Source of the DNA: a virus
Lineage: Duplodnaviria; Heunggongvirae; Uroviricota; Caudoviricetes
Virus record (IMG/VR): IMGVR_UViG_2778261381_000011
Length of the DNA stretch: 23,253 nt
Reading direction: 5' to 3' (one strand)
Every line of letters begins with the position of its first letter. Position 1 is the first letter of the stretch. A model generated the notes under the pieces. It saw nothing but the letters and a program-made list of their open reading frames with translations. It was not told where the DNA came from and searched no databases. Made by a program: the position numbers and the translations under genes. Positions 7,486 to 23,253 of this stretch are shown here, one piece after another.

Positions 7486-7488
7486 GCG

Positions 7489-7692
7489 TTACTCCCACAG
7501 ATTGACAGTTTCAGCCACGGGCGCGGTCTGAACGTCGGGCAGTTCGACGGCGGTGCCGTGTGGCAGCACCGCACCCAGTTCAGCCAGTCCCGGATTTGCG
7601 GCGAGCACGGTCTCAACCACGCCCTCAGTGCGCCCGTAATACCGGACACAAATGGCGTCGAGCGTGTCGCCCTGTAGCGCAAAGGTCTTCAT
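7489..7692 (-). CDS. X: Tail protein gpX
   Basis: Internal ATG at 7692 gives a 67-aa product MKTFALQGDTLDAICVRYYGRT... as in P2 gpX; start overlaps the L stop as TGATG. Confidence 0.9.
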   Translation of the reverse strand: MKTFALQGDTLDAICVRYYGRTEGVVETVLAANPGLAELGAVLPHGTAVELPDVQTAPVAETVNLWE

Positions 7693-8201: not shown

Positions 8202-8300
8202 GACTACCTCTGAAAAGTCGGGCGGTGGACGCCGGTGCAGTGTCAGGTGATTCACTCCCACTGACCGGCGTGCCGCCCTGGCGCGGGGCGCATTCGGTTG

Positions 8301-9044
8301 TTAACTGGCTTTCTTTTTCGGGCGTCCACGTTTTGCCGGTGTCGCACTCCGGGTCTTACGCGGGGCGCTGGTGGCCGCTTTTGGCTGTGGCTCCGGCTTC
8401 GGTTTCAGTTCCCGCTCCAGTCGTTCAATCTCTTTTTTGACGCCTGCCTGACAGTCGAGCTGTGTCGCACGTTGCAGGTGCGCCAGCGCACCGGCGGCAT
8501 CACCAGCGTCACGCAGAAACAGACCGGTGATTTTGTGCAGCTTTGCGCGCACTTCATCAGGCATGTCTGCCGTGGCAGTCAGTTCAAGGGTGTCCGTCAG
8601 CAGGCGGGGTTCCACGGATTCACCGGCAGCGTGAGCGCGCATGGCCGCGAGCGCCACTTCCTCGGTGAACATGTACGGCGGGGTGCGGCGGTGTTTCCCC
8701 GGCATGGTCAGACCGTATTTCAGGGCATAACGGGCAATCTCCAGCGCACCGGCAATATCGCCGGTATCCAGACGCCACAGCATGACCGTCATCAGAATGT
8801 CATCCTGTGCACCTTTGCCCTGCTCCAGCACACCGTTCACCCACGGCAACCAGAACGGCAGCAGCTCGCGCTTTTTCGCGGCCTTAAGCTCTTTTGAATA
8901 AATCGCTTTCAGTGTGCGCTGGTCTGCGGCGAGCTTAACCAGCATCTGCTCATAGACAGTTGCATGTCGCAGCGGGGCGGCTTCCCGCTGCGCGGTCATC
9001 GCTGCCGAGACCCGCATCATGTGGCGCTGTGCGGGACTCGTCAT
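8301..9044 (-). CDS. M: Terminase endonuclease (small) subunit gpM
   Basis: 247 aa with basic C-terminal tail (PKKKAS); P2 gpM length; downstream of N. Confidence 0.9.
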   Translation of the reverse strand: MTSPAQRHMMRVSAAMTAQREAAPLRHATVYEQMLVKLAADQRTLKAIYSKELKAAKKRELLPFWLPWVNGVLEQGKGAQDDILMTVMLWRLDTGDIAGALEIARYALKYGLTMPGKHRRTPPYMFTEEVALAAMRAHAAGESVEPRLLTDTLELTATADMPDEVRAKLHKITGLFLRDAGDAAGALAHLQRATQLDCQAGVKKEIERLERELKPKPEPQPKAATSAPRKTRSATPAKRGRPKKKAS

Positions 9045-9047
9045 CGG

Positions 9048-10121
9048 TTACGCTCCCGGCTCTGCGGTCGCTTTAGCCGGTGTGGAAAAATCACCGACCT
9101 TAATTTTTTCCACCAGACAACCGGCGGCATAGTCTTCCACCACGTAATCAATGTTCATTGACTCGTAGTTCTCCACGCGGTCGAGTTTCGGGTTTTCCAC
9201 AATCACGCGGCGATGGCTGTCATCCATGTAGTAGATGGACAGGTTTTCCAGCTTCGTGATGAGCATCGCATCCGCCGGGAAGTACGGGACACGTACCGCC
9301 GGCAGGTTACCGATGCGTTTCTGGCTGATGATGACGTCAGCGGCCAGCATCTCGCTGTTGTCCTGCTCCTTGTTGACGATGGGGAAATACTTGTCCGCCA
9401 GTAGCTGACGCCCCACAATCACCACAAGGTCAGGGTCTTCCTGATACCACGGCTCAATCAGGTTGTTGGTCGCATCCATCACCAGTGCATCGAGGCTTAC
9501 ATAATCACCGCCCTTACCCACGCGGATGACCTCAGAGGTCGTGTGACCTTCCTCGTCAGTGACCTTGCTCATCACGCGCGCCGGTGCCTCATTGCGGTAT
9601 TTCTGCAGCCAGCCGACCGCCACATCCTGCAGCATCGGATTGCTGCTGCGGTCAGAGGTTTCGGCACGCTTCACGCCGTTAAAACCGGCCATGATGAAAT
9701 CAAGGGACTGGCGTTTGATAATGGCGTTACGGATACGGAGCTGGAAATCCTGATAACGCGCCCACAGGTCAAGCGTTTTGTAGCGGATATAAAAATCGAA
9801 GTTAATCTGGTCGCATTCGTACTTGTTAGACGCCAGCTTCGAGAAGTCCTTCGGCTGACGCTCGGTGCCACCGGCGGTGTCGGTGGTGCTGGCGATGGAG
9901 CCGGTGACACCGATACCAATTTTTTCCCCTTTCATTTCGCTGACCGGCACAATGTTGATGCGGGTCAGAAAATCAGAGGACTCCTGCATGGTGTTCATCA
10001 GGGTCTGGGTGACCGACGGTTCAACGGTGAATTTTTTCGACACATCACCGGCGTCGATGCCGTTCAGTTCGGCAACACGGGACAGGTAGGCATTAAATTT
10101 AAAGCGGGTTTCCTGGCGCAT
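9048..10121 (-). CDS. N: Major capsid protein gpN
   Basis: 357 aa, begins MRQETRFKFNAYLSRVAELNGIDAG..., P2 gpN-like. Confidence 0.95.
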   Translation of the reverse strand: MRQETRFKFNAYLSRVAELNGIDAGDVSKKFTVEPSVTQTLMNTMQESSDFLTRINIVPVSEMKGEKIGIGVTGSIASTTDTAGGTERQPKDFSKLASNKYECDQINFDFYIRYKTLDLWARYQDFQLRIRNAIIKRQSLDFIMAGFNGVKRAETSDRSSNPMLQDVAVGWLQKYRNEAPARVMSKVTDEEGHTTSEVIRVGKGGDYVSLDALVMDATNNLIEPWYQEDPDLVVIVGRQLLADKYFPIVNKEQDNSEMLAADVIISQKRIGNLPAVRVPYFPADAMLITKLENLSIYYMDDSHRRVIVENPKLDRVENYESMNIDYVVEDYAAGCLVEKIKVGDFSTPAKATAEPGA

Positions 10122-10179
10122 AGTTTTTCCTGAAATTAAGGGTTAATCGTGAAGGTTTTCCCGGACTGACTGACGCCGG

Positions 10180-11034
10180 TCAGCAGTTCGTCATCAGGGC
10201 GTCACCGCCACCACCGGTGGCCTTGCTGCGGCGCTGCTGGGTCAGACTTTCGGTGTGGTCGAGACTGTTTTTCAGGCGGGTGAATGCCTGGCTGGTTTCA
10301 TCCGCCCTGTCAGTCACCTCCTGCTTAAGTGCGGAAAAGGCGGTTTCCATCTCAGAGAGGCGCTGCTCAGTGGCGCTCAGTTTTTCCTGCACATGTTCAG
10401 CAACAGCGGTCACCGCTTCATGCACGTCATTCAGACGGGCGTCATCGCTGGCCTGTTTGCGGCCAAAAATGGATTTCACCTTTTCGGTCAGGGCGGTGAA
10501 CACGGTTTCAGGCAGGTCTTCAAATTCCAGCTCAACGGGCGTTGCCACTGAAATCAGATTTTCAGGGCTTAATTTGAAGCGGTTCAGGGGGTTGTGTTTT
10601 GCCGTGCGGCAGAATTCCAGGTATTCCGTGCCGAGGCTTGCCGGGTCATCGGTGACGGCCAGCCCCACCAGATAACATTTGCCGGTGTTGGCAAAGTTCG
10701 GCTGAATTTCCATTGAGGTGTAGACCTTCTGCGCGGCCTTGTTCATCGCGATAAGGTCATCGGTCGGGGTGATTTTCGCAAACAGCGCCCACTTGCCTTT
10801 CAGCGCCGAATCATCGTCAATCTTTTCGGCCTTCAGTTCGGCCACATCGCCATAACGCTTAAAAATACCGTCAGGCAGGATGCCGCGCAGATGTTCCAGG
10901 TTAATGCGGCAACCATAGACTCGCGGGTCAAAGGTTTCGGCCATTTCCTGAATATCCTGCGCACTGATGACACGCCCGTCACAGGTGTCACCCTCAACGC
11001 CGATACGAAAGAATTTTGAGACTTTTTTTGCCAT
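10180..11034 (-). CDS. O: Capsid scaffolding protein gpO
   Basis: ATG at 11034 gives MAKKVSKFFRIGVEGDTCDG..., 284 aa as in P2 gpO; the track's extension starts upstream of this ATG. Confidence 0.9.
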   Translation of the reverse strand: MAKKVSKFFRIGVEGDTCDGRVISAQDIQEMAETFDPRVYGCRINLEHLRGILPDGIFKRYGDVAELKAEKIDDDSALKGKWALFAKITPTDDLIAMNKAAQKVYTSMEIQPNFANTGKCYLVGLAVTDDPASLGTEYLEFCRTAKHNPLNRFKLSPENLISVATPVELEFEDLPETVFTALTEKVKSIFGRKQASDDARLNDVHEAVTAVAEHVQEKLSATEQRLSEMETAFSALKQEVTDRADETSQAFTRLKNSLDHTESLTQQRRSKATGGGGDALMTNC

Positions 11035-11207
11035 TGTCAGGAGTCCTGAATAGTGATTAGAGGAGTCACATGTCGGCATCAGTTTCCCGACGATACGCAT
11101 CCTCCGCCATCAGTCCCGGATGGCTTATCACTGACACAACAGCACCTTAGCGAATCGCAGGGCGCGACTCAGTAGCCTTGCCGTGTATTCATCACGGCGA
11201 GGTATTC
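11035..11207. promoter_or_regulatory. Divergent late-promoter region between O (minus) and P (plus)
   Basis: 173-bp non-coding gap between divergent late operons, the position of the Ogr-dependent P_O/P_P promoters in P2. I could not find a clean TGT-N12-ACA dyad by eye, so this is positional only. Confidence 0.4.
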
Positions 11208-12980
11208 ATGACCATCACCACAGACACCACTCTTTTACACGACCCGCGTCGTCAGGCGGCGCTGCTGTACTGGCAGGGGTTTTCCGTGCCGCAAATTGCC
11301 GCCATGTTGCAGATGAAACGCCCGACGGTGCAGAGCTGGAAACAGCGCGACGGCTGGGACAGTGTTGCCCCCATCAGCCGTGTCGAAATGAGTCTGGAAG
11401 CGCGGCTGACCCAGCTCATCATCAAACCGCAGAAAACCGGCGGTGACTTCAAGGAAATTGACCTGCTCGGACGCCAGATTGAACGACTGGCACGGGTCAA
11501 CCGTTACAGTCAGACCGGCAACGAGGCAGACCTTAATCCGAACGTCGCTAACCGCAACAAAGGCGGGCGTCGCCAACCGAAAAAGAATTTTTTCAGTGAC
11601 GAGGCCATCGAAAAGCTGGAGCAGATTTTCTTTGAGCAGTCTTTCGAATATCAGTTGCACTGGTATCGCGCCGGGCTTGAGCACCGCATCCGCGATATCC
11701 TGAAATCCCGCCAGATTGGCGCGACGTTTTATTTTTCCCGCGAGGCGCTGCTGCGCGCCCTGAAAACCGGTCATAACCAGATTTTTCTGTCGGCCAGTAA
11801 AACGCAGGCGTATGTGTTCCGCGAATACATCATCGCCTTTGCCCGGCTGGTTGACGTTGACCTGACCGGTGACCCGATTGTCCTGGGCAATAACGGCGCA
11901 AAACTGATTTTTCTCGGCACCAACTCCAACACCGCGCAGAGCCATAACGGAGACCTGTACGTCGACGAGATTTTCTGGATCCCGAATTTTCAGGTACTGC
12001 GTAAGGTGGCATCAGGTATGGCCTCACAGAGTCACCTGCGCTCGACCTATTTCTCCACCCCGTCCACGCTGGCGCACGACGCCTACCCGTTCTGGTCGGG
12101 TGAACTGTTCAACCGGGGACGTGCCAGCGCCGCCGAACGTGTGGAAATCGACGTCAGTCATAACGCCCTTGCCGGTGGGCTTCTCTGTGCGGACGGCCAG
12201 TGGCGACAGATTGTCACCATTGAGGACGCCCTGAAAGGTGGCTGCACGCTGTTCGACATTGAGCAGCTCAAACGTGAAAACAGCGCCGACGATTTTAAAA
12301 ACCTGTTCATGTGTGAATTTGTTGACGACAAGGCGTCGGTGTTCCCGTTCGAGGAGCTGCAACGCTGCATGGTCGACACGCTGGAAGAATGGGAAGACTA
12401 TGCGCCGTTTGCCGCCAATCCGTTCGGCTCCCGCCCGGTATGGATTGGTTACGACCCGTCACACCGTGGCGACAGTGCCGGATGCGTGGTGCTGGCACCG
12501 CCGGTGGTGGCCGGTGGCAAATTCAGAATACTTGAGCGTCACCAGTGGAAAGGCATGGACTTTGCCACCCAGGCGGAATCCATCCGCAAACTCACCGAAA
12601 AATATAACGTTGAATACATCGGTATTGATGCCACCGGCCTCGGTGTCGGTGTTTTCCAGCTCGTGCGCTCGTTCTATCCCGCCGCTCGCGATATCCGCTA
12701 CACGCCGGAAATGAAAACCGCAATGGTGCTCAAGGCAAAAGACGTTATCCGCCGTGGCTGTCTGGAATATGACGTCAGCGCCACCGACATCACCAGCTCG
12801 TTTATGGCTATCCGCAAGACCATGACCAGCAGCGGACGCAGCGCCACCTATGAGGCCAGCCGCAGCGAGGAAGCCAGCCACGCCGACCTCGCCTGGGCGA
12901 CCATGCACGCTCTGTTAAATGAGCCACTCACCGCCGGTATCAGCACCCCGCTGACATCCACCATTCTGGAGTTTTACTGA
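11208..12980 (+). CDS. P: Terminase ATPase (large) subunit gpP
   Basis: ATG at 11208 preceded by GAGG; product MTITTDTTLLHDPRRQAALLYWQG..., 590 aa as in P2 gpP. Track ORF begins at a TTG. Confidence 0.95.
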   Translation: MTITTDTTLLHDPRRQAALLYWQGFSVPQIAAMLQMKRPTVQSWKQRDGWDSVAPISRVEMSLEARLTQLIIKPQKTGGDFKEIDLLGRQIERLARVNRYSQTGNEADLNPNVANRNKGGRRQPKKNFFSDEAIEKLEQIFFEQSFEYQLHWYRAGLEHRIRDILKSRQIGATFYFSREALLRALKTGHNQIFLSASKTQAYVFREYIIAFARLVDVDLTGDPIVLGNNGAKLIFLGTNSNTAQSHNGDLYVDEIFWIPNFQVLRKVASGMASQSHLRSTYFSTPSTLAHDAYPFWSGELFNRGRASAAERVEIDVSHNALAGGLLCADGQWRQIVTIEDALKGGCTLFDIEQLKRENSADDFKNLFMCEFVDDKASVFPFEELQRCMVDTLEEWEDYAPFAANPFGSRPVWIGYDPSHRGDSAGCVVLAPPVVAGGKFRILERHQWKGMDFATQAESIRKLTEKYNVEYIGIDATGLGVGVFQLVRSFYPAARDIRYTPEMKTAMVLKAKDVIRRGCLEYDVSATDITSSFMAIRKTMTSSGRSATYEASRSEEASHADLAWATMHALLNEPLTAGISTPLTSTILEFY

Positions 12981-14014
12981 TGAGCAAGAAAAAAGGGAAA
13001 ACACCGCAACCTGCGGCAAAAACAATGACCGCCAGCGCCCCGAAAATGGAGGCATTCACCTTTGGCGAGCCGGTGCCGGTACTCGACCGCCGTGACATTC
13101 TGGATTACGTCGAGTGCATCAGTAACGGCAGATGGTATGAGCCGCCGGTCAGCTTTACCGGTCTGGCGAAAAGCCTGCGTGCTGCCGTGCATCACAGCTC
13201 GCCGATTTACGTCAAACGCAATATTCTGGCCTCGACATTTATCCCGCATCCGTGGCTTTCCCAGCAGGATTTCAGCCGCTTTGTGCTGGATTTTCTGGTG
13301 TTCGGTAATGCGTTTCTGGAAAAGCGTTACAGCACCACCGGTAAGGTCATCAGACTGGAAACCTCACCGGCAAAATATACCCGCCGTGGTGTGGAAGAGG
13401 ATGTTTACTGGTGGGTGCCGTCCTTCAACGAGCCGACAGCCTTCACGCCCGGCTCCGTGTTTCACCTGCTGGAGCCGGATATCAATCAGGAGCTGTACGG
13501 CCTGCCGGAATATCTGAGCGCCCTTAATTCTGCCTGGCTGAATGAGTCGGCCACGCTGTTCCGCCGCAAGTATTACGAAAATGGCGCACATGCCGGATAC
13601 ATCATGTACGTCACCGATGCCGTGCAGGATCGCAACGATATCGAAATGCTTCGCGAAAACATGGTTAAGTCGAAAGGCCGCAACAACTTTAAAAATCTGT
13701 TTCTCTATGCCCCACAGGGGAAAGCCGACGGCATTAAAATTATCCCCCTCAGTGAAGTGGCGACGAAGGACGATTTTTTTAATATCAAAAAAGCCAGTGC
13801 CGCTGACCTGCTGGACGCGCACCGCATCCCCTTTCAGTTGATGGGTGGCAAGCCGGAGAACGTCGGGTCGCTGGGTGATATTGAGAAAGTGGCAAAGGTC
13901 TTTGTCCGCAATGAGCTTATCCCGTTACAGGACAGGATTCGGGAAATAAACGGCTGGCTCGGCCAGGAGGTCATCCGCTTTAAAAACTACTCACTGGACA
14001 CTGACAACGGCTGA
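12980..14014 (+). CDS. Q: Portal (capsid vertex) protein gpQ
   Basis: 344 aa, begins MSKKKGKTPQPAAKT...; start overlaps the P stop as ATGA. Confidence 0.95.
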   Translation: MSKKKGKTPQPAAKTMTASAPKMEAFTFGEPVPVLDRRDILDYVECISNGRWYEPPVSFTGLAKSLRAAVHHSSPIYVKRNILASTFIPHPWLSQQDFSRFVLDFLVFGNAFLEKRYSTTGKVIRLETSPAKYTRRGVEEDVYWWVPSFNEPTAFTPGSVFHLLEPDINQELYGLPEYLSALNSAWLNESATLFRRKYYENGAHAGYIMYVTDAVQDRNDIEMLRENMVKSKGRNNFKNLFLYAPQGKADGIKIIPLSEVATKDDFFNIKKASAADLLDAHRIPFQLMGGKPENVGSLGDIEKVAKVFVRNELIPLQDRIREINGWLGQEVIRFKNYSLDTDNG

Positions 14015-14019
14015 ACATC

Positions 14020-14041
14020 GCCGCCTGCGGGCGGCTTTTTT
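14020..14041 (+). terminator. Rho-independent terminator downstream of Q
   Basis: GCCGCC-tgcg-GGCGGC hairpin (14020..14035) followed by TTTTTT (14036..14041), 6 nt after the Q stop. Confidence 0.65.
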
Positions 14042-14182
14042 ACACCCCGCCATCACGCCCTCACACGCTCATCACCGCACAAAAAATCCCGCAGACACAC
14101 CAACGCCCAGCAGGCCAAGTAAACGCCTTCACGACGCGCTCAGACGCTGAAAAAATAAAATCAGCGCCACCGCCAGCGCGCA

Positions 14183-14201
14183 GTGCTTTCCCCGCCTCGC
14201 C
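14183..14201 (-). other. cos: P2-type cos site (19-nt cohesive end sequence)
   Basis: Minus strand reads GGCGAGGCGGGGAAAGCAC, which matches the P2 cohesive-end sequence as I recall it; it lies beyond the Q end, as in P2. Confidence 0.75.
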
Positions 14202-14220
14202 CGCCCGCTTCATGGGGCAA

Positions 14221-14248
14221 TTTGAATGCAAATGCATTAGCATTCAAA
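14221..14248. repeat. 28-bp near-perfect palindrome between cos and the cargo genes
   Basis: TTTGAATGCaAATGCATTaGCATTCAAA: 9-bp arms TTTGAATGC/GCATTCAAA around a palindromic AATGCATT core, two mismatched positions. Further GCAT/ATGC-rich palindromic motifs (TGCATGCA) lie at about 14293..14320. Confidence 0.5.
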
Positions 14249-14338
14249 AGCTATCCCCCAAGCAGCCTGTAAGAGTTTTTACCTCTACTTGTTTTGCATG
14301 CAAATTAATGCAATAGCATATACACCTACAGCATCTGA

Positions 14339-15628
14339 CTACTTTGTAAAAAGAGGCCTATATTTTTCAAACAAGGAGGTTTCGGATGTATTAACATCAG
14401 TGGCAGGCTGCATCTCAGCATGTTGCTTTTGTAAACGTTTAAATCTATCAATTGAATCTTTAATTAACCAAGACATTGACACCATTTCTAAAGGAGTGCG
14501 AAGCATCATTTGCCATGACACACCCCAAATCAATGAGCTACCTAATTCTTTAAATATCATCGAATAGTCTTCACCATCGACAAAAACAAGCTCAAACCCT
14601 TCATTCAAAGCTATTTGTTTAAAACAACCCAAATCAAGAACACAGAGAATAGTTAACTCCCCATTTATAAAGTCACACAAATCACGCGCATCATTTATAA
14701 GATTAACAAATGGAGTTAAAGGAACCCACAATTGATTATTTTTATATTCATTCAAAAATATAGGTGCAATTTCCCTCCCTCTAAGATCCAACTGTGATAA
14801 TGCTATATCCAGATCACAGCCACGATTAGATACCACATAAAATCCATCTTCTAGCCTTACCCATGAAATTCCTTTTTTCCTGCATACATTCAGATGCTCA
14901 TTAAATTCTTTTTTATATGTAACTTCTGAAAAACACAGTTCTTTCCTTAACACTAATGGCATCCCTCTAAAATCTTCAGCTTTATCTTCTGCTAAAAATT
15001 CAGCCAGTCTATTAAGGTTATTTTTTTGACGTTCAACACGATCATTTTTATTTTGACTTGATTTCACCTCCACCAGTACTGGTGCACCTTCACCAAGTAA
15101 ACAAACATCACCATGCCTCATACTCATTGTAATATCATTGAGTAACGTAGGAACACCAGCCTTGCAGGCCTTCTTCACCAATTCCCATTCTTCTTTTAAG
15201 CCATCCTTCCCTCCCATATAGCCCGCTGACTCCTTGGGACTGTAATCCACAACATTATAGAAAAAATGCTTAATATCAAACTTATCCAAATACAAAAAAG
15301 CAACACTATCACCAAACATTTTGAAGATATATATTTTAAATTTCACATCATCAATAGCCTGCTCAACACTCTTAATATTTTCCTTAATAAGTTTAGATTG
15401 TTCTTTTTTTAAACCACCTTTTCTTTTTGTTGCCTTTAGTTCCCCTAAGAAAGACTTTAATCCTTTGATCATCCTTTCACTTCTAATTATATTCCTTATT
15501 ATTTTGAACTGAAACGACAACAACAAATCTGTATTTTTTAGGTTTCCCTCTAATTTTACCAGGTCTTTTTTCAAATCAAACACTACCGAGTCATGCAATT
15601 TTCGACTCAATTCAGTCTTAAACTTCAT
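14339..15628 (-). CDS. Hypothetical protein with PD-(D/E)xK nuclease-like motif; AT-rich cargo at the P2 old/tin locus
   Basis: 429-aa ORF with ATG start and GAGGGA RBS 4 nt upstream. Helical/charged N-terminal ~100 aa, then ...EEWELVKKACKAGVPTLLNDITMSMRHGDVCLLGEGAPVLVEVKSSQ... giving E, D, ExK and Q in the order and spacing typical of PD-(D/E)xK nucleases. No TM segments. Not recognisable as Old or Tin. Confidence 0.6.
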   Translation of the reverse strand: MKFKTELSRKLHDSVVFDLKKDLVKLEGNLKNTDLLLSFQFKIIRNIIRSERMIKGLKSFLGELKATKRKGGLKKEQSKLIKENIKSVEQAIDDVKFKIYIFKMFGDSVAFLYLDKFDIKHFFYNVVDYSPKESAGYMGGKDGLKEEWELVKKACKAGVPTLLNDITMSMRHGDVCLLGEGAPVLVEVKSSQNKNDRVERQKNNLNRLAEFLAEDKAEDFRGMPLVLRKELCFSEVTYKKEFNEHLNVCRKKGISWVRLEDGFYVVSNRGCDLDIALSQLDLRGREIAPIFLNEYKNNQLWVPLTPFVNLINDARDLCDFINGELTILCVLDLGCFKQIALNEGFELVFVDGEDYSMIFKELGSSLIWGVSWQMMLRTPLEMVSMSWLIKDSIDRFKRLQKQHAEMQPATDVNTSETSLFEKYRPLFTK

Positions 15629-15675
15629 AGTTCCCTCAATAAAAGCAACTTACAGTCAAGGTAATTACTCCTGTT

Positions 15676-15737
15676 GTGGAACAGACTATTGCAGTCTCGT
15701 TCCACCACTAGTATAACAAGTATCAATACGGCATCAA
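15676..15737 (-). promoter_or_regulatory. Candidate sigma70 promoter and leader hairpin in the gap between the two cargo genes
   Basis: Minus strand reads TTGATG (15737..15732), 16-nt spacer, TATACT (15715..15710), then an imperfect hairpin GTGGAACAGACT-attgc-AGTCTcGTTCCAC (15676..15705) with no U-tract, then the RBS of the 429-aa gene. Confidence 0.3.
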
Positions 15738-15740
15738 CGA

Positions 15741-16472
15741 TTAGTTATCTAATACTGAAACGACTTCGCCCGTTCGGATGTCGACACGCGCAGCAATAGT
15801 CTGTTTAACTACTCCTCCATAAGCATTAGTGCCACGAAATGTGGTTTTCACAATGGCGTGCGGGTCTTTATTCAAAACCAAATGATATACCGTTGACACA
15901 TGTTTATAAGATGAATCATCGTTCATATTATCCTTAATTAGTTTTTCCAATGGACGATAAGAACCATCCCAACCACTAAAATTGCTCTGAAATGTATCAA
16001 GATTGATTTTATTGTTTAGTGAATTCGGGTCATTTTCATAATCATTAAAGCACCATCCAAGAACATCACCGAGTTTCAACTCATCATCTTTGGTAAATGT
16101 ATACTCACTCATGCAGGCATAAAATGCATCTGATGCGGTGACTGGCACTTTCTTAAAGTTAATGTAACTATTCACAATATCGTGTCGAGTCTTCTTTGGC
16201 TCGTTCCGATATTCCTTGAGTGTTTTTTCAGTATATTCGAATGTTTTTTGAGCCTGATGTTCTGCTACGGTTGCTGTTTCAGTTTTAGCAACTGGCTGGC
16301 TTTTTTCTGTTGGGTAGAGTATTGAACCAATTATGCTCAATGCAAAACCACCTCCGAGATAAACCGCACTTGCACGTTTACGGTTTGGCATCCGCACCAG
16401 TGATGGCTTGATTAACCCGATGAAAAAAGCAACGAAAAAAGCGAGTGATAGAAAAGCGATTACAATATCCAT
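15741..16472 (-). CDS. Hypothetical membrane protein with two N-terminal TM helices and a ~190-aa soluble C-terminal domain; AT-rich cargo
   Basis: Track ORF starts at a GTG (16496); the ATG at 16472 has an AAAGGA RBS and gives MDIVIAFLSLAFFVAFFIGLI (TM1), KPSLVRMPNRKRAS (basic loop), AVYLGGGFALSIIGSILY (TM2), then a hydrophilic domain. Confidence 0.6.
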   Translation of the reverse strand: MDIVIAFLSLAFFVAFFIGLIKPSLVRMPNRKRASAVYLGGGFALSIIGSILYPTEKSQPVAKTETATVAEHQAQKTFEYTEKTLKEYRNEPKKTRHDIVNSYINFKKVPVTASDAFYACMSEYTFTKDDELKLGDVLGWCFNDYENDPNSLNNKINLDTFQSNFSGWDGSYRPLEKLIKDNMNDDSSYKHVSTVYHLVLNKDPHAIVKTTFRGTNAYGGVVKQTIAARVDIRTGEVVSVLDN

Positions 16473-16701
16473 AGCTATCCTTTTTGCATCATCCACATAA
16501 AAAATCGATCTTATGTTAGCAACAGGAAGCTTACTTTTGAATATTTGTAAGTTGTTAGCTTTAGCTCTCCGAGCTAACTCCTTTCAACCGTCAAAAACCA
16601 GCACCAACGCAGTAAAAATATGACTATCAACTAACGCCTCGCTTCGCGAGTTGTTCAACCCCGCCAGCCCTGAAAACAAGTTTCACGACTGGCGGCGTTC
16701 T

Positions 16702-16908
16702 CTATCGTCTTCGTGGTGGTGGCGTAACTCTTGATTGACCGATATGGTTAAACCGCCCGTAATTATCCCGGACTATTTCGGCACACCCGACTAGCTCATC
16801 TGGCGTCAGATTTTCGTTGACCATAATCCGCTGTAGACGGTGAACAATGGCCATCAGCTTGATATTTTTAGTTTTATGCTGAGGTATCTCGCCTGGTATT
16901 CTGTGCAT
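16702..16908 (-). CDS. Small hypothetical protein (68 aa) coupled to the orf91-like gene
   Basis: ATG at 16908..16906 overlaps the upstream TAA as TAATG; product MHRIPGEIPQHKTKNIKLMAIVHRLQRIM.... No recognisable domain. Confidence 0.3.
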   Translation of the reverse strand: MHRIPGEIPQHKTKNIKLMAIVHRLQRIMVNENLTPDELVGCAEIVRDNYGRFNHIGQSRVTPPPRRR

Positions 16909-17363
16909 TATCCAAGCCACCCGTTTTGCTGTGCACGCTCCATCTGTTCATCTGAATAGTTCCATGCTCCATCCGTGGCAACCATTGCCCCGCCAGACAT
17001 CCCCGTCTCTGGTTCATACATAACAGCAAGGCCGAGCTGATGCATAATTTCATGATTAATTCTGAATACCAGACCACGCTCACTAAGTTCTTTCCAGTTC
17101 ACAATCTCATGTGCACCTGTATTAAGCAGCTCAATACTTAGCAAGACATAATCTTCCAGCCAGTCTGACAGGTCAGTAACATCTGTTATCCGGGCTTCAA
17201 CCTTTCGCCCCGTATACACACCCTGCACCCATTCATGCAAAATCAACGTGTCCCCGCGCTCATAATTACGGTCATTTTTCCGAAACTCTGCGCGTTTCTT
17301 TCCTTCCAGCACAAGGTCGAAATATTTTGCGTGCAGCTTTACCTCGTGAATTTTAGCCATCAT
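16908..17363 (-). CDS. orf91-position protein: ASCH/DUF3850-like N-terminal domain with a ~70-aa C-terminal extension
   Basis: Tandem ATGs at 17363/17360 overlap the A stop (ATGATGA). N-terminus MAKIHEVKLHAKYFDLVLEGKKRAEFRKNDRNYERGDTLILHEW resembles the small beta-barrel ASCH-like family. C-terminal part contains HEIMH (an HExxH pattern). Confidence 0.6.
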   Translation of the reverse strand: MMAKIHEVKLHAKYFDLVLEGKKRAEFRKNDRNYERGDTLILHEWVQGVYTGRKVEARITDVTDLSDWLEDYVLLSIELLNTGAHEIVNWKELSERGLVFRINHEIMHQLGLAVMYEPETGMSGGAMVATDGAWNYSDEQMERAQQNGWLG

Positions 17364-19645
17364 GTCCACTCCATTACTGTTGAGAATCCCGGCCACTCAT
17401 CAGCGACCGAATACGTGAATTTTTTCCCGTCATAATTTACGGTTGCCCCACGCGCCAGCGCCTCAATCTCCCATCGCTGAGGCCTGATACCGTTCTGAGC
17501 AAGGTCAACGCGGATACGGGTAATTTGCATTCTTTCCGACCGGGTCAGTCTGGCCGATGGTGCAATTTCATGTGGTTTTAACGGGCTTCCGTTTCTTTGC
17601 TGACGGTTTGGCGTTCTCAGGTCGTGTTTTAATGCGCCCCTGAGCGCCCTCACGACCTCCGGTTCATTCCATTCAATAACACCGTTATCAACCAGATTAA
17701 GCACTGCTGCGGCGTGCTCAGAAGGTGTGGGAGCCAGTAACGAAGCATCACCACCAGTGAGCTTTCCACAGTTATTGACAGGACTCCGAGGCGCGGCGAT
17801 GCCGCTTTTTAAAGTCAAAGGCTCAACGACCGGAACTTTCGGCACAATGCGCCAGTCCGTCGTTCTGGTGATATGAATATGACGCGCGCCGAGATGCGGC
17901 GCGTAAATGCCGACCACTCTCTCGACTTCTTCCTCGTACTCGTTAACGTCATCCGACGGGCTACGGGCGACCCTGACAGTCTGACGATCGCGCGGAACAT
18001 TTGCCCCACCCTGCGCGCTGATATACAACGCAAAATCACCACTGTCTGCGGCGGCGCGTGCAGCCTCGACGCGTTCGTCAAACTCATCAGCAATGCTGAC
18101 GCCACGAGGCAATTTGCGTAGTTCACGGTAAGCCCCCATTGTCGGCAGACCAACCGTTTTAAATTGCGGGATGCGCCACGTTGACGCCCATGCGGTAACA
18201 GCCGCGGCAGTATCTTTAAGCGGCCTGCCGGTATCGTTATCGAGCTGACCATCCAGTGCATAGCCGTCGATATTTTTTGAGATGTATTTAGCGATATACC
18301 CCGCAGCACCACCCCGGTTAAGGTGTTTTGCCTGAAAACGGTTTCGCGCGGCTCCTCTTTCGTCGCCATCCTCTTTGAGCGCATAGCGACGCATGATTTC
18401 GATAATCTGGTTACGCTGGCGTGGATTACAAAAAAGCATCATATGCCAGTGCGGTGTTCCGTCGTGGTGTGGCTCGACGACACGCAAACCGTAGACCTGT
18501 AAATCATTATCCTTGAATGCCGTACGCATCAGGCTCCAGATACGGCAGAGATAACGCTGCGCATCCTTTGGATTAAATGCCTCATCATTCCAGCCGTGAT
18601 TAAGCTGGACGGTTTTACTTTCGCCTTTTCCGACCTGACGTGTCGGGTGATACTTTGACGGCGTGGTCAGCGTGATAAACATCCCCACATCACCCTCTGC
18701 GGCGGCGTAACGCTCAATACCGGCAATGGTGTTCATCAGCTCCATCCGGCGAATTTCAGGATTAGAAATACTGCCCATCACCTTACTGATAAGGTCGATG
18801 CGCTCGCCGGTTTCCCTGTTTTCAAGGTCACACGATTTAAGAAATTCCAGATTTGCCTGGCGGCGTGCACGCACATCACGAATGGCATGTTTACTGGCAT
18901 AAGGAGAACGGTCTTTATTCACCTCCCCGACAGCAATCAGTAACGCCTCATGCCAGCGCATACGCTGGCCTTTAAGCTGATGAGTCCACCACTCATCGTT
19001 AAACAGACGGGCAATGGCAGAATATGCCTGCCTCGTGGTCATCTGTCCTTTACGGTATTTTTTCCAGTAGAGAGGGGAAATATTGAAAGCACGTGCAGCG
19101 CCAGCAACATGACCATAGAGGTGAGCCTGCGCCTCATCCGTAAACAGCGATTCTTTTTCGCCATGTGCATCCACCCAGGCATCGCTGAGTTCCTCATACA
19201 TCATGAAAAGCTGCGATGAGATACGGGCAGCAAACTTTTTCAGGTCCTTGTCATTCATTCCCGGCAGGCGCGCATAGTGGTCACGCTCTGCCAGAAACAG
19301 TAACGACGCGTCGGTGTTCATTTCATGGCGCTGATTCACACGCTCAATGCGCGGCCATAAACGACGCTGAAAAGTGGATGTGAGGAAATAAAACCCGTGC
19401 ACCGGGCTTTTATTGCGCCGGATGTAGTCATAGCGTGAAGTAAACAGCGAGCGCAAAAAGTAAGGCAGGCGGTTAATCGTGGATAAAACACCTTGCACCT
19501 GACGCATCTCGTCACGTGTAAGGGGTCTTTCGCGCCCGACGGCCTCGCGTGGCGCGTTCCATGCATAAGCACCGGTAAACGTCTTACCGGTGCCTGCGGC
19601 AAATGCTGACGGAGGGACAAAACGCCCGGAGGCTTTAACGGCCAT
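17360..19645 (-). CDS. A: Replication initiation endonuclease gpA (rolling-circle initiator)
   Basis: ATG at 19645 gives MAVKASGRFVPPSAFAAGTGK..., 761 aa, near-identical to P2 gpA as I recall it. The track's 14-aa N-terminal extension is probably not used. Confidence 0.95.
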   Translation of the reverse strand: MAVKASGRFVPPSAFAAGTGKTFTGAYAWNAPREAVGRERPLTRDEMRQVQGVLSTINRLPYFLRSLFTSRYDYIRRNKSPVHGFYFLTSTFQRRLWPRIERVNQRHEMNTDASLLFLAERDHYARLPGMNDKDLKKFAARISSQLFMMYEELSDAWVDAHGEKESLFTDEAQAHLYGHVAGAARAFNISPLYWKKYRKGQMTTRQAYSAIARLFNDEWWTHQLKGQRMRWHEALLIAVGEVNKDRSPYASKHAIRDVRARRQANLEFLKSCDLENRETGERIDLISKVMGSISNPEIRRMELMNTIAGIERYAAAEGDVGMFITLTTPSKYHPTRQVGKGESKTVQLNHGWNDEAFNPKDAQRYLCRIWSLMRTAFKDNDLQVYGLRVVEPHHDGTPHWHMMLFCNPRQRNQIIEIMRRYALKEDGDERGAARNRFQAKHLNRGGAAGYIAKYISKNIDGYALDGQLDNDTGRPLKDTAAAVTAWASTWRIPQFKTVGLPTMGAYRELRKLPRGVSIADEFDERVEAARAAADSGDFALYISAQGGANVPRDRQTVRVARSPSDDVNEYEEEVERVVGIYAPHLGARHIHITRTTDWRIVPKVPVVEPLTLKSGIAAPRSPVNNCGKLTGGDASLLAPTPSEHAAAVLNLVDNGVIEWNEPEVVRALRGALKHDLRTPNRQQRNGSPLKPHEIAPSARLTRSERMQITRIRVDLAQNGIRPQRWEIEALARGATVNYDGKKFTYSVADEWPGFSTVMEWT

Positions 19646-20132
19646 ATGAGCCAAAAGCCTCTGAACAACGCTTGCTGAGTTGCTCAACCTGCGCGTTTAA
19701 ATCAGCAAAAGACTTTGCGCTTCCGGTCAGAATATCGTGATGCATCAGGCCGGAAACGAGCTGGCTTAATTTCGGGTAATAACCAACCACCGCCAGCCAT
19801 TCCTGACCGGCGTTTTTACCGCTTTCCGCTCTCTTTTTCTCGTGGAGAATAAACTGAAAGCTGTCACTGGTAACGACATAACGTTCGCCAATTTCAATAC
19901 GAATACTCATGCCGTTCTCCGGTAATGTTTGTTTTTTTGCTTCAAAGACTGACTGACAGGAAACACAACGCGTGGCTGACGGGTAAGCCGCACGACGGGC
20001 AGCAGGTATTGGCGCGTCACACTCTTCGCAAACCAGCGCAGAAGCACCGCAATGTTTTACCCTTGCCGCGTTAATCTGGCGCTCCAGTAATTCAGCCTGT
20101 TGTTCCTGAATAAAATCTACGTTGTCCGGCAT
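19635..20132 (-). CDS. orf82/orf83-like region read as one 165-aa ORF: TraR/DksA-type C4 zinc-finger domain followed in frame by a second small-protein domain
   Basis: N-terminal part has CEEC...(19 aa)...CVSC (TraR/DksA-like zinc finger). An internal ATG (MSIRIEIGERYVV...) marks where a second gene would start, but no stop codon separates the two parts. Confidence 0.7.
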   Translation of the reverse strand: MPDNVDFIQEQQAELLERQINAARVKHCGASALVCEECDAPIPAARRAAYPSATRCVSCQSVFEAKKQTLPENGMSIRIEIGERYVVTSDSFQFILHEKKRAESGKNAGQEWLAVVGYYPKLSQLVSGLMHHDILTGSAKSFADLNAQVEQLSKRCSEAFGSYGR

Positions 20133-20134
20133 TA

Positions 20135-20437
20135 TCAGCTCCTTTTATCGTTAAGTTTCCTGGATACATCAGCGCAATAACTGGCAAGTTCTGTCGTTAA
20201 TTTTGTCAGTTCATCCACTGAGGAAATTTGCTTGTGGAATACAGCGCGTTTAACAAGTAAATTGACCACATCAGACAGGAGGTTTAATTCATTCTGATAA
20301 ATCGCGATAACAGATTCAGTTATGTCGCGTTTTTCTTTATCAAGGCAAAGTTGAATAAGAGACAAATCGCCATTTTTCATAACGGCGATTTTTAAGGCGT
20401 TATTCAGTAATACAACTGAATGAGAACAGGACATCAA
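20135..20437 (-). CDS. Small early-region protein (orf81 position), hypothetical
   Basis: 100-aa ORF between B and A in the same orientation; start overlaps the upstream ORF stop (ATGA). Confidence 0.7.
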
Positions 20438-20658
20438 AGCACCTCCCCGCGAGACAATCCGATATTGTGAAATTTTTCCGACTCCTGACTGAGCAGCTCG
20501 ACTATCTCCACGCGGGATAACTCCGCCTTTGTGATATGGCGAATCATGGCGTCAAGATGAGAAGAAAAGCGTGTCGCTGCGTCGGCCTGTGCTTCGGCTC
20601 TGGCCTGTTGCAGCAGTAATGCGTATTTACCGCACTTGTTTTCAGAAACTGTATGCAT
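20434..20658 (-). CDS. Small early-region protein (orf80 position), hypothetical
   Basis: 74-aa ORF, ATG start, 63 bp downstream of the B stop. Confidence 0.7.
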
Positions 20659-20721
20659 GACTTTCTCCAGGCAAAAAGAAGCCCCGCACGATTAAGTGCG
20701 TTAAAAACTCTGGTTAATTAT

Positions 20722-21222
20722 TTAATGCAGATATTGCTCTGGTTTTACCGACGTCAGAATTGTCGGTGCATACTCAAACAGGCTGAATAATTCACGTAAT
20801 GCACGGAACAAAGCATCACGCCAGTAACATGATTCTTCATTAATTCGCCAGTATGGCTGGTTGAATTCTTTTTCAGTCAGTCGTGCGTGCATAAATAAAG
20901 TGCGACGCTGACTGACTGTTAAAAAACTAATATATGCATACTCACTTGCGCCAACCTGACGGCGTTTTGAGAATGCCCCACGCAATTCATCAATTGCACA
21001 TACCAGCCGTTCACGTTCGACGTCGTTCATTTCTTCAAAACGCATCGTTGCGTGACGCTGTTTTAACTGCGCATGAAAGCAAACCGTTAACCGTTCGCGC
21101 TCCATCATCTGATTATAATAATCACATGTATCCTGCCAGCGAGGGACGGCAAGATGCTTACCAATTATCCGGCGCATAGTTGCTGGCTGTTTTTCAACGA
21201 GATTGAGCGTCATCACTGTCAT
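20722..21222 (-). CDS. B: Replication protein gpB
   Basis: ATG at 21222 has GGAGGG 8 nt upstream and gives MTVMTLNLVEKQPATMRRIIGKHLAVPRWQ..., 166 aa as in P2 gpB; start overlaps the upstream small ORF stop (ATGA). Confidence 0.9.
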   Translation of the reverse strand: MTVMTLNLVEKQPATMRRIIGKHLAVPRWQDTCDYYNQMMERERLTVCFHAQLKQRHATMRFEEMNDVERERLVCAIDELRGAFSKRRQVGASEYAYISFLTVSQRRTLFMHARLTEKEFNQPYWRINEESCYWRDALFRALRELFSLFEYAPTILTSVKPEQYLH

Positions 21223-21389
21223 TTCCATACCCTCCGGCTTTTCAGAAAGGTCAGAGCCTTTTTTAACGGACTCTGTTTTTTGGTACGGATAATGATTCCC
21301 TTGCGTCCCTTCCCGTGGGTGATGGTGAAGTCAATCGCCATGGGGCTTTCGTTACGCAATAACTGAGCAATACAACGAGGCTCGTTCAT
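21219..21389 (-). CDS. Small protein between cox and B (orf78 position), hypothetical
   Basis: Internal ATG at 21389, just after the cox stop, preceded by GGTGGAAAGG; 56-aa basic product MNEPRCIAQLLRNESPMAIDFTITHGKGRKG.... The longer track ORF overlaps cox. Confidence 0.5.
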   Translation of the reverse strand: MNEPRCIAQLLRNESPMAIDFTITHGKGRKGIIIRTKKQSPLKKALTFLKSRRVWK

Positions 21390-21399
21390 CCTTTCCACC

Positions 21400-21771
21400 T
21401 TAAGCCGCACGGCCATGTCTTGATTTGCTGTAACTAATGCGATTTTTCCAGTCATGCCATTCTGTCGGGGCTTCATCAACCAGTTGGGCTGCGTACTTGT
21501 CCCACTCACGGCGATTAATCCATAATTCAGCTTTCCCTCTTGGTTTTAATGGGTCTGTCATGTAGAAGGCTGGCAGCTTGCCTGCTTTAGCCATTTCAGC
21601 CACCGCGCGTGGTGTCTTACCGATGTAAAGAGCAAAACCTTCTTTCGACAGCAAATCAGATGGGCGCTCTGAAATCTGAATGCTTTTACGTTTGGCTTCA
21701 TTTTCGAAACTTGCCTCATCGCTAGTTGGACAAGAAATTTCTACATTTGTCGTCACTTTGCTATCCTCCAT
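21400..21771 (-). CDS. cox: Cox-like excisionase/transcriptional regulator with an extended N-terminus
   Basis: C-terminal ~85 aa (FALYIGKTPRAVAEMAKAGKLPAFYMTDP...EWHDW) resembles P2 Cox. ORF starts at ATG 21771, but a GTG at 21756 has a GGAGGA RBS 7 nt upstream, so the true start is uncertain. Confidence 0.8.
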   Translation of the reverse strand: MEDSKVTTNVEISCPTSDEASFENEAKRKSIQISERPSDLLSKEGFALYIGKTPRAVAEMAKAGKLPAFYMTDPLKPRGKAELWINRREWDKYAAQLVDEAPTEWHDWKNRISYSKSRHGRAA

Positions 21772-21864
21772 AAGATTTGCGATTCACCAACTGGAGCCAT
21801 CTAGAGCCTTTTTGAGTGAATCACAAATTGCCAAGTAACAATATAATTGGAGATTAGCAAAATT
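21772..21864. promoter_or_regulatory. Immunity switch region between cox and C (candidate Pe/Pc promoters and operator)
   Basis: 93-bp gap between divergent cox and C. 11-bp inverted repeat TTGCGATTCAC (21777..21787) / GTGAATCACAA (21816..21826), 10/11 match, 28 bp apart. TATAAT hexamer at 21842..21847. Confidence 0.5.
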
Positions 21865-22164
21865 ATGTCAAGTGAACAAAGTGAGAAACTAAAGCTCATC
21901 CGTGAATCCGAACGCCTTAAAACTAAGGAACTTGCTGAATTAATTGGAATTAATTACTACACATATCATGGATATGAATCAGGAAAATCAAAAATGCCTA
22001 TGGAAGCAGGTATGAAGCTGTTTAAGCATCCACGCTTTCGCAAGTATCGTGACTGGTTCATGTTTGATGAAACAGATCCAGCAGCTGGACAAATAGCCCC
22101 GGCTCTCGCACACATTGGGCAAGACTCAACAACCTTGCACCACTCAGACCAGAAGACTGGCTGA
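21865..22164 (+). CDS. C: Immunity repressor C (HTH, Cro/CI-type)
   Basis: ATG at 21865 (track begins at an upstream TTG); product has a helix-turn-helix region (KELAELIGINYYTYHGYESG) and a C-terminus GQIAPALAHIGQD...HSDQKTG resembling P2 C; 99 aa. Confidence 0.9.
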   Translation: MSSEQSEKLKLIRESERLKTKELAELIGINYYTYHGYESGKSKMPMEAGMKLFKHPRFRKYRDWFMFDETDPAAGQIAPALAHIGQDSTTLHHSDQKTG

Positions 22165-22257
22165 CGATTTATTCAGCATATGTGTGTAGTAAATGTACGA
22201 AAGAAAATTGCATTAATTTTCAAGTAGTAGAAGTAAACAGCGTCATCGGAGGGCTTT

Positions 22258-23253
22258 ATGTCTATTAAAAAGCTCGATGATGGTCGTTATGAAGTGGACG
22301 TCAGACCGCAGGGTGCAGATGGAAAACGTATCAGGCGGAAATTTAAAACTAAAGGTGAAGCTCAAGCATTCGAACGTCATGTACTGGTTAACTACCACAA
22401 CAAAGAGTGGTTGGAGAAACCAGCCGACCGCCGAACTCTTACAGAGTTGTTAGGCAGATGGTGGATATATCACGGAAAATCACATGAGCGTGGAGATATT
22501 GAACGGGGGCGTTTAACGACAATAATCGCCAAATTTGCAGAAATGGGAGTGTCCAGAGCTGACCAGCTAACAAAGAAAACGATAACTGATTATCGCGTTG
22601 TAATGATGAACGATGGTCTAAAACCAGCCAGCGTAAATCGACATCTGGCAATAATGAGTGGGATGTTCACCAAGTTAATTGACGCCGGTGAATACCACTC
22701 TCACAACCCGTTCCGTGAGATTAAACGGTTACGTGAAGCTGTTACGGAAATGGCTTTTTTGTCCAGTGAAGAGATTACGCGGCTGTTATCCATGCTTGAT
22801 GGTGATGAATTAAATGCAACTCTGGTCTGCCTTTCTACTGGTGGACGCTGGAGTGAAGTGTCTAATTTAAAAGCTGAACACATCATTAACCAGATGGTTA
22901 CGTTTATGAAAACTAAAAACGGAAAACGCAGGACAATTCCCGTTTCGCAGGACCTGATTAAACGGATCAAGACCAAAAATTCAGGCAGGCTTTTTAATGC
23001 CAGTTACTACAAAGTGCGTAACGCTCTCAGGGAAGTAAAACCCGATTTACCTGACGGACAAGCAGTACATGTTTTGAGGCATACATTTGCCACACATTTT
23101 ATAATGAATGGAGGTAACATAATCACATTGCAGCGCATCCTAGGTCATTCTAACATTCAGCAAACTATGACCTACGCACACTTTGCACCGGATTTCTTAC
23201 AAGATGCTGTGACTCTTAACCCGGTGTCAGGAATGTCCATAATGCGTCCATAA
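22258..23253 (+). CDS. int: Tyrosine integrase (P2 Int family)
   Basis: 331 aa; GGAGGG RBS 5 nt upstream; C-terminal catalytic region with R...HVLRHTFATH...LGHSNIQQTMTYAH (R-H-R-Y recombinase signature). Stop codon is the last 3 nt of the window. Confidence 0.95.
   Translation: MSIKKLDDGRYEVDVRPQGADGKRIRRKFKTKGEAQAFERHVLVNYHNKEWLEKPADRRTLTELLGRWWIYHGKSHERGDIERGRLTTIIAKFAEMGVSRADQLTKKTITDYRVVMMNDGLKPASVNRHLAIMSGMFTKLIDAGEYHSHNPFREIKRLREAVTEMAFLSSEEITRLLSMLDGDELNATLVCLSTGGRWSEVSNLKAEHIINQMVTFMKTKNGKRRTIPVSQDLIKRIKTKNSGRLFNASYYKVRNALREVKPDLPDGQAVHVLRHTFATHFIMNGGNIITLQRILGHSNIQQTMTYAHFAPDFLQDAVTLNPVSGMSIMRP

Follow-up and report, generated by a model that had tools for sequence, protein, structure and literature searches.

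The 23,253-nt window analysed here (IMG/VR record IMGVR_UViG_2778261381_000011; positions below refer to this whole stretch of DNA) is a P2-like prophage of Escherichia coli. Beside its cos site we found an AT-rich insert with two genes, one for a 243-amino acid (aa) orthologue of the membrane protein Orf97 of phage 186 and one for a 429-aa protein with a predicted PD-(D/E)xK nuclease core. The insert is probably a pair of independently acquired single-gene cassettes, Orf97 for exclusion and a single-protein anti-phage nuclease, and not one system. Positions 14000-16900 are 100% identical to the corresponding region of E. coli strain 09-02E (NZ_AP022650.1). The insert and its two genes are as follows:

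14239..16628: variable insert, the hotspot cargo between the conserved P2-like backbone ends, delimited by megablast coverage and guanine-plus-cytosine (GC) content
14339..15628, minus strand: gene of the 429-aa protein (WP_001704922.1, ATG start), a predicted PD-(D/E)xK nuclease of an unnamed family and a stand-alone cassette
15741..16472, minus strand: gene of the 243-aa Orf97 orthologue (WP_000355825.1), an inner-membrane protein and candidate superinfection-exclusion factor (tblastn, PHROGs and the note in record U32222)

The insert sits between gpA and gpQ beside cos, and its contents vary among otherwise syntenic prophages; the flanks match >2,100 E. coli genomes and numerous Peduovirus genomes. 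An earlier examination of the same DNA from its letters alone (the sequence-only reading) had called two open reading frames (ORFs) at 14339..15628 and 15741..16472, both on the minus strand, and we recovered both. It had also described the backbone as interrupted only by an AT-rich insert of ~2.1 kb. The insert is real but larger, at ~2.39 kb, slightly above the span of the coding sequences, because homology to P2 and other Peduovirus genomes stops at ~14238 and restarts at ~16629 (megablast). AT-richness was evident upon calculation: GC content is 0.361 for positions 14250-16560, 0.341 for the 429-aa gene and 0.389 for the membrane protein gene, compared to 0.547 in the left (1-14000) and 0.477 in the right backbone (16900-23253).

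The identification of this site with the P2 old/tin locus and thus with a defence hotspot, likewise made in the sequence-only reading, agrees with the work of Rousset et al. 2022 (PMC9122126), who defined such hotspots and validated several of their cargoes. According to these authors, the cos-proximal gpA-gpQ hotspot holds old and tin in P2 and diverse defence systems in P2-like prophages. They reported 1,650 arrangements for the hotspots, and the cargo is not all defence, with partition systems and toxins found too. The sequence-only reading took the island for a candidate undescribed system, but the locus had been noticed before: the exact protein triplet of the window (WP_001704921 + WP_000355825 + WP_001704922) is listed in Table S5A of Rousset et al. 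2022 as 'DUF3850/ASCH + hypothetical + hypothetical'. We found no sign in that paper that this arrangement, or the arrangement around the nuclease homologue of P4-like satellites, was tested. A 2026 study in Nucleic Acids Research obtained phage protection from 6 of 8 unannotated P4 hotspot loci that had been picked at random.

Each of the two genes assorts independently of the other. Among 5,426 complete E. coli genomes, 17 carry the 429-aa gene (counted at ≥99% identity) and 92 an orf97-like gene. The 92 orf97 copies comprise 18 of the allele of at least 99% identity that accompanies the 429-aa gene, 66 at 90–95% identity and 8 that are 186-like; orf97 stands without the nuclease gene in ~74 of the 92 genomes and in phage 186. 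Conversely, orf97 does not accompany the nuclease family in P2-like prophages of Citrobacter or in P4-like satellites, nor in any of the 78 other genomes examined. A homologue with 69% identity is the sole gene between gpA and the portal gene in a Citrobacter P2-like prophage, and homologues with 50–51% identity lie between psu and int in P4-like satellites of E. coli and Pluralibacter. One cluster (90% identity) related to these P4 homologues comprises 960 sequences, most of them from Klebsiella, Salmonella and E. coli. More distant members (27–38% identity) were detected in IMG/VR contigs, where near neighbours include Psu (3), P4-type integrases (3 of 6 integrases), GPA (3) and portal.

The slot between orf97 and cos is variable as well. 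It holds a 218-aa membrane protein in strain 50579417 (locus L094, 2761-3417), a 232-aa membrane protein distantly related to the former in phage 9W (L003, 3355-4053) and an unrelated 224-aa soluble protein in strain DG341-1 (L095, 2667-3341), none of which matched Pfam or PADLOC. Phage 186 has a terminator alone between orf97 and the genome end. Since homology of the window to the orf97-bearing phages 9W, S164, P24A7b and P22H4 begins at ~15784, in the last orf97 codons, we regard this position as the junction between two modules. Whether the pair co-occurs across P2-like prophages was a question raised by the sequence-only reading; the two genes do not co-occur consistently across genomes, and they swap independently.

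The P4-like satellite of E. coli 07-4299 (at tRNA-Sec) deserves a separate remark. Its homologue, WP_000742539, is convergent to a 457-aa gene, WP_001406847 (L096, 2917-4290), which matched neither Pfam nor PADLOC. Both genes reappear together in Table S1 of Rousset et al. 2022. These authors list the P4 homologue as 'hypothetical + hypothetical'. Pluralibacter has a 64-residue remnant of the 457-aa gene together with an intact nuclease gene. We considered the 457-aa gene as a partner and rejected it, as it was not recurrent elsewhere.

WP_001704922.1 is a 'hypothetical protein' in RefSeq and hypothetical in every other source too. The protein matched phrog_14906 over its full length, where the function is given as unknown, and no Pfam, NCBIfam or PADLOC v2.0.0 model. 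Hidden Markov model (HMM) searches of both window proteins against PADLOC, Pfam and NCBIfam brought nothing significant, and weak matches to Zn_ribbon_ACC (E 0.044) and to mCpol (E 0.057, residues 76–154) were dismissed; residues 76–154 are modelled as helix. While a word-indexed search gave just 22 clusters, an exhaustive profile search revealed ~1,380 clusters at 50% identity, 469 of them at E≤1e-30. Family members are nearly all 380–460 aa long and align end to end, and their loci are found in Proteobacteria, Acidobacteria, Chloroflexi, Bacteroidota, Planctomycetota, Spirochaetia and others. When 50,697 deposited phage genomes were searched by tblastn with the 429-aa protein, no match was returned, though PHROGs and IMG/VR contain the family.

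Within an alignment of 62 diverse sequences including the window protein (mean column identity 29%), residues G106, D107, G136, G143, E147, T167, D174, E187, K189, R197, Q201, E260 and R377 are invariant; E147, D174, E187, K189 and Q201 were so among the first 22 homologues as well. The nuclease motif seen in the sequence-only reading (D174, E187 and K189) is thus borne out by conservation. No relevant Pfam match was obtained for any of the 62 sequences, and PADLOC gave just scattered single matches among the relatives (E 0.002–0.01). An AlphaFold2 model built with the family alignment (pLDDT 87.6, pTM 0.88) consists of three parts, all encoded on the minus strand:

15290..15592: residues 13–113, a long antiparallel helical hairpin (helices 13–28, 33–70 and 75–113) in the AlphaFold2 model
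14963..15211: residues 140–222, the predicted PD-(D/E)xK core with catalytic candidates E147, D174, E187, K189 and Q201
14414..14962: residues 223–405, a C-terminal alpha/beta domain, candidate sensor or regulatory part, with invariant E260 and R377

The modelled core runs from helix 142–156 through strands 161–163, 175–177 and 184–186 to helix 196–214 and strand 216–220. E147 lies on the first helix, D174 starts strand 2, E187-x-K189 ends strand 3 and Q201 lies on the second helix. The predicted order, alpha-beta-beta-beta-alpha-beta with D and ExK on strands 2 and 3, matches that of PD-(D/E)xK nucleases. Holliday-junction resolvases were the best structural matches, with low scores and no sequence-level relationship. 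Searching PDB sequences with the 429-aa protein itself and with two profiles produced only coiled-coil noise (syntaxin, keratin), which we discarded, and no relatives were detectable for the C-terminal domain.

The 429-aa gene is a plausible and credible defence candidate. Its product could work as a self-contained cytoplasmic sensor and effector, that is, as an anti-phage nuclease with its own promoter-like site and ribosome binding site. The helical hairpin, which likely serves in oligomerisation or autoinhibition, would, together with the C-terminal domain, hold the PD-(D/E)xK nuclease off, until an infection cue releases it to cut phage DNA or, abortively, host DNA. We further propose, tentatively and with less confidence than the two-cassette reading itself, that the 429-aa protein is the founding member of a new family of single-protein anti-phage nucleases of broad phylogenetic range, in which hairpin and C-terminal domain would form a previously undescribed sensing or autoinhibition module, and which would shuttle as a one-gene cassette among P2-like phages, P4-like satellites and chromosomal defence islands.

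The neighbourhood of the family was analysed at 78 genomic loci from many phyla, using crude ORF calls and clustering four genes per side by BLAST. The 560 neighbour ORFs fell into 523 clusters, the largest of which spans four loci, and at these loci no Pfam family recurred at positions -1 and +1; the family has no conserved neighbour. Pfam domains at the two positions were a mobile-element mix plus SduA_C, SIR2_2, RES, FRG, AbiJ, HerA and YoeB. Among the 143 immediate neighbours, PADLOC recognised LmuB (3), SduA (2), Dsr1, HerA, QatC, PDC-S19 and MADS mad3/mad8, in addition to SMC/ABC-type defence ATPases (DndD/PbeC- and AriA/PtuA-like). Such neighbours are suggestive, and together with the repeated capture of the gene in P2/P4 hotspots they fit a self-sufficient defence gene. 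An ImmA/IrrE-type HTH_3 + Peptidase_M78 protein was rejected as a partner, for it was found only in Ramlibacter tataouinensis, 19 bp upstream of the family member (L004, 6846-7982).

One sub-clade of the nuclease (31–38% identical to the window protein) has a conserved 72-aa ORF 0–13 nt downstream (L111, 7282-7500; L112, 7274-7492; L113, 7268-7486; L114, 7094-7312). The context is P2-like once and P4-like three times, and neither the window nor any other locus examined has this ORF. Within its own sub-clade it may serve as an accessory partner.

The nuclease might alternatively serve the mobile element instead of the host, by Hjc-like DNA processing or recombination, as counter-defence, or as a weapon between phage and satellite. 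The resolvases among the structural matches would suit such a role, as would the presence of the gene on both P2-like helpers and P4-like satellites, which are mutual competitors, and the non-defence cargo of these hotspots (PMC9122126). Nevertheless, we consider this explanation unlikely. The 429-aa gene is present in <1% of the E. coli genomes that have this P2-type locus and therefore is not part of the phage life cycle, and many family members reside on chromosomal islands that contain no phage genes, with genes of Lamassu, Shedu, Dsr1, HerA and Qat next to them. Moreover, the model predicts neither the size nor the dimer architecture of a resolvase: the archaeal and phage resolvases Hjc/Hje and other minimal PD-(D/E)xK enzymes are dimers of 120–140 aa, whereas the core here makes up one-fifth of the 429-aa protein and is embedded in a three-part arrangement.

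Improbable to a somewhat greater degree is a solitary Type IV-like restriction enzyme that cuts modified or marked incoming DNA constitutively, with neither an infection sensor nor an abortive outcome. By HMM and fold search, the 429-aa protein contains no modification-reader domain (SRA, PUA/ASCH, YTH or winged-helix McrB-N). To our knowledge, its helical hairpin is without counterpart in known Type IV enzymes, which we also count against this explanation.

Among known systems, GAPS1 from the Vibrio parahaemolyticus island VPaI-6 is the best functional analogy for the 429-aa protein. GAPS1 is a widespread single-protein PD-(D/E)xK defence borne on mobile genetic elements; phage capsid protein activates it, it induces dormancy, the substitutions D313A and K328A abolish defence, and homologues are abundant in Klebsiella and E. 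coli (Mahata et al., 10.1101/2023.03.28.534373). The two proteins differ in that the GAPS1 motif lies near the C-terminus (D313...DAK328), whereas that of the 429-aa protein is central (D174...EVK189). Identity with GAPS1 was rejected and no homology between the two was detected: the N-termini are unrelated, hmmsearch scores were negative against N-terminal fragments and the active-site peptide, and the profile of the 429-aa family, compared by hhalign with the nuclease part (355 aa, VVDFL...FIDAKG) of a GAPS1 homologue from Klebsiella, reached a probability of 0.2%. A word-indexed protein search started from a GAPS1-homologue fragment returned fragments only. As a separate observation, a 186-like prophage of Klebsiella aerogenes has a GAPS1 homologue split into ORFs of 145 aa and 355 aa right after the integrase gene (L118, 3001-4523), which is a further single-protein PD-(D/E)xK defence cargo on a P2/186-type phage.

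Shedu (SduA, DUF4263) is a single-gene defence in which a regulatory N-terminal part is combined with a PD-(D/E)xK nuclease, a layout that the 429-aa protein would share. It occurs on the same kinds of island, and SduA genes adjoin two members of the nuclease family. However, the SduA/DUF4263 models of PADLOC and Pfam match neither the window protein nor its 61 relatives, and the domain order differs, with the nuclease of the 429-aa protein central and followed by a domain of ~180 aa. With P2 old and tin, the insert shares the genomic slot, the AT-rich moron character and the presumed exclusion of other phages, but no sequence relationship, and the PADLOC models of known systems did not match. 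Old is described as an ABC-ATPase with a TOPRIM nuclease (10.64898/2026.07.10.737580). Toga, Bandua, Aernus, Crouga, Reve and Hailong were rejected, having other domains, and neither DefensePredictor nor the language-model paper lists the window accessions in its supplements.

The sequence-only reading could assign neither protein to a named system and suggested a PADLOC search. PADLOC-DB v2.0.0, including models for Shedu, Hachiman, Lamassu, PARIS, Old, PD-T4/T7/Lambda and PDC candidates, returned 0 families for both proteins at E≤1. For the 429-aa protein the lack of a match to a named system stands, but the membrane protein can be assigned, as it is the orthologue of phage 186 Orf97. The 186 sequence matched residues 2–251 of the window protein with 76.8% identity in tblastn (E 1e-120) and 78% in the alignment, and phrog_3403 was matched over 243/243 positions (E 1.3e-145). 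RefSeq places the start at an ATG, yielding 243 aa; the product would have 251 aa if translation began at an in-frame GTG (16496). According to tblastn, 33 deposited phage genomes, phage 186 among them, contain an orf97-like gene, and the family forms >160 unnamed clusters (90% identity) in Enterobacterales.

Window and 186 proteins have the same length (243 aa, with 77–78% identity over the full length) and the same overall layout of two transmembrane segments, a basic loop and a Cys-bearing C-terminal domain. Both genes lie at the right end of the genome, flanked by the replication gene block and cos. The two hydrophobic segments that underlay the earlier description as a two-transmembrane protein were found at residues 3–21 and 34–52. 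An alignment of 28 family members and hydropathy define two conserved parts, again on the minus strand:

16317..16466: residues 3–52, transmembrane segments 3–21 and 34–52 around the conserved basic loop KPSLVRMPxRKRSS (hydropathy and 28-member alignment)
15744..16244: residues 77–243, conserved C-terminal domain with invariant C120 and C141, predicted periplasmic (28-member alignment)

Invariant residues of the loop are P23, V26, M28 and R31. The linker between the transmembrane part and the C-terminal domain (~165 residues) is variable. Applying the positive-inside rule to the basic loop, we infer that the loop is cytoplasmic and the C-terminal domain periplasmic, where C120 and C141 would probably form a disulfide. 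Orf97 has no relative in Pfam or among PDB sequences, and a profile search of the PDB returned nothing.

The phage 186 record U32222 states of orf97 that 'expression from plasmid blocks 186 infection'. There, orf97 is the last gene of an SOS operon, which consists of the p95 promoter with a LexA site, tum, a partial terminator (t95a), orf97 and the terminator t95b. The window differs in this respect: the 186 copy is transcribed with tum from the LexA-repressed p95, whereas no tum gene lies upstream of the window orf97, no LexA-type box (CTG-N10-CAG) was found within 13900-17600, and the upstream block is P2-type (orf91/DUF3850 plus a 68-aa ORF). The regulation of orf97 consequently differs from that in phage 186. 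The 186 SOS operon (tum-orf97) was reportedly defined by Brumby et al. in 1996. A Salmonella prophage paper cites the tum-orf97 operon (Brumby et al. 1996).

Most likely, by homology to the phage 186 protein, the window Orf97 acts as a superinfection-exclusion factor. Borrowing the phenotype from the 186 record, the protein would exclude 186/P2-type phages at the envelope via its periplasmic domain, and the step blocked would most likely be DNA entry. Orf97 could instead be a membrane protein of the phage induction or lysis programme, with the block of infection as an over-expression artefact. This would agree with the co-transcription of the 186 copy with the antirepressor Tum from an SOS promoter, by which the protein is made at induction and not in the quiescent lysogen, and with plasmid expression as the source of the sole recorded phenotype. 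We rate it as improbable as the Type IV-like enzyme: orf97 lies in the variable cargo hotspot and not among lysis genes, is absent from most P2-like phages (present in 92 of ~2,100 E. coli genomes with this locus type) and is uncoupled from tum and LexA in the window. Besides, an exclusion protein made at induction is also sensible, since it protects the producing cell.

As the sequence-only reading had noted, the gap between the two genes measures exactly 112 bp (15629-15740), and each gene has its own ribosome binding site, with Shine-Dalgarno-like GAGGGA and AAGGA ahead of the two ATGs. The promoter-like element it placed in this gap is present as a site, but the promoter density of the region does not exceed that of shuffled sequences. 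Two elements of the gap, both on the minus strand, are of interest:

15710..15737: promoter-like site of sigma-70 type, TTGATG-16 nt-TATACT, TG-extended (pattern scan)
15678..15703: stem-loop GGAACGAGACU-GCAAU-AGUCUGUUCC of 13 bp, 7 nt after the -10 hexamer (sequence and RNA fold)

The stem-loop would form the 5' end of a putative mRNA or act as an operator. In the 429-aa gene, the putative 5' leader (15629-15706, minus strand) folds at -25.1 kcal/mol (z -4.0), which none of 200 shuffled sequences equalled. The upstream regions of nuclease homologues are not alignable and the promoter-like site is not conserved there, so that the promoter draws no support from conservation. A second hairpin in the putative leader partly pairs the Shine-Dalgarno sequence. 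The leader arm GCAATAGTCTGTT recurs inverted at 15793-15812, inside the 3' end of orf97, where homology to the orf97 phages begins; it may be a recombination scar or a regulatory element.

The sequence-only reading had allowed for one two-component system or two single-gene systems; two single genes are favoured, and independent assortment contradicts the one-system option. A two-component system, with the membrane protein as sensor or anchor and the nuclease as effector, is thereby left without support and appears highly improbable, for although the genes are adjacent on the same strand and both AT-rich, the 429-aa gene is always alongside orf97 in its about 16–17 E. coli carriers and an imperfect inverted repeat joins the orf97 3' end with the 5' untranslated region of the nuclease gene, each gene occurs without the other as detailed above, their GC contents differ (0.34 vs 0.39), and a recombination junction and the promoter-like site lie between them.

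Several points weigh against the reading of the insert as an exclusion gene and a defence nuclease. Foldseek with the full model of the 429-aa protein found nothing in the PDB at E≤0.001, and none of the HMM libraries (Pfam, NCBIfam, PADLOC) recognises a PD-(D/E)xK domain in it. The gene is rare in E. coli, and in 1 of the 17 carriers (LR-45, NZ_AP027532.1) it is split by an insertion sequence of the IS3 family. A defence gene is next door in ~1/8 to 1/10 of the family loci, a tally that is uncontrolled and based on crude ORF calls. Promoter-like sites number 9 in the region compared to 8.0 ± 3.1 in shuffles, and because they are not in excess, the TTGATG/TATACT site is only suggestive. The evidence for exclusion by Orf97 is a one-line GenBank note on the 186 protein expressed from a plasmid. 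In addition, with neither tum nor a LexA box, the timing of orf97 expression, and perhaps its role, may differ from phage 186.

Outside the two cassettes lies the P2-like backbone. The 19-nt P2 cos sequence (reverse complement of GGCGAGGCGGGGAAAGCAC) has one exact match in the window, at 14183-14201. The flanking features are:

11178-12980, plus strand: terminase gene
12980-14014, plus strand: portal gene (gene Q)
14164..14179, minus strand: putative terminator-like hairpin with T-run, 3' of the 429-aa gene and just past cos (pattern scan)
14183..14201: cos cohesive-end sequence; its location, with portal gene Q on one side and the cargo on the other, agrees with the P2 map (PMC9122126)
16661..16697, minus strand: GC-rich backbone hairpin (CGCCGCCAG...CTGGCGG) without T-run, at the end of the conserved orf91 block before the insert
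From 16908, minus strand: DUF3850/ASCH (orf91-like) and replication endonuclease A genes

A 68-aa ORF without a family match (WP_071607298.1, 16702-16908, minus strand) lies between the DUF3850/ASCH gene and the insert. Other P2-like prophages retain it as part of the backbone. After this ORF comes the hairpin at 16661-16697, which also precedes the cargo in the Citrobacter P2-like prophage. At the opposite end, a near-perfect palindrome (TTTGAATGCAAATG/CATTAGCATTCAAA, 14221-14248) adjoins cos where P2 homology stops, and a second one (ATTTGCATGCAAAT, 14293-14305) follows 70 bp deeper in the insert, within the region 3' of the 429-aa gene. An Rfam scan of the island returned no family.

Taken as a whole, the finding is of an ordinary kind for P2 hotspots, with a useful specific lead. 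If the 429-aa family works as defence, it would be a widespread single-gene nuclease system that PADLOC v2, Pfam and NCBIfam have missed, and it would provide a compact one-protein model, with clear catalytic residues, for how a nuclease is silenced and released by a phage cue. The orf97 gene, entered as a phage-exclusion gene in the genome record of 186, occurs commonly in prophages of Enterobacterales, and the predicted periplasmic, disulfide-bonded domain of its product makes a block of DNA entry directly testable. The inserts of P2 hotspots are best read as stacks of independent cassettes with their own breakpoints each, and not as operons.

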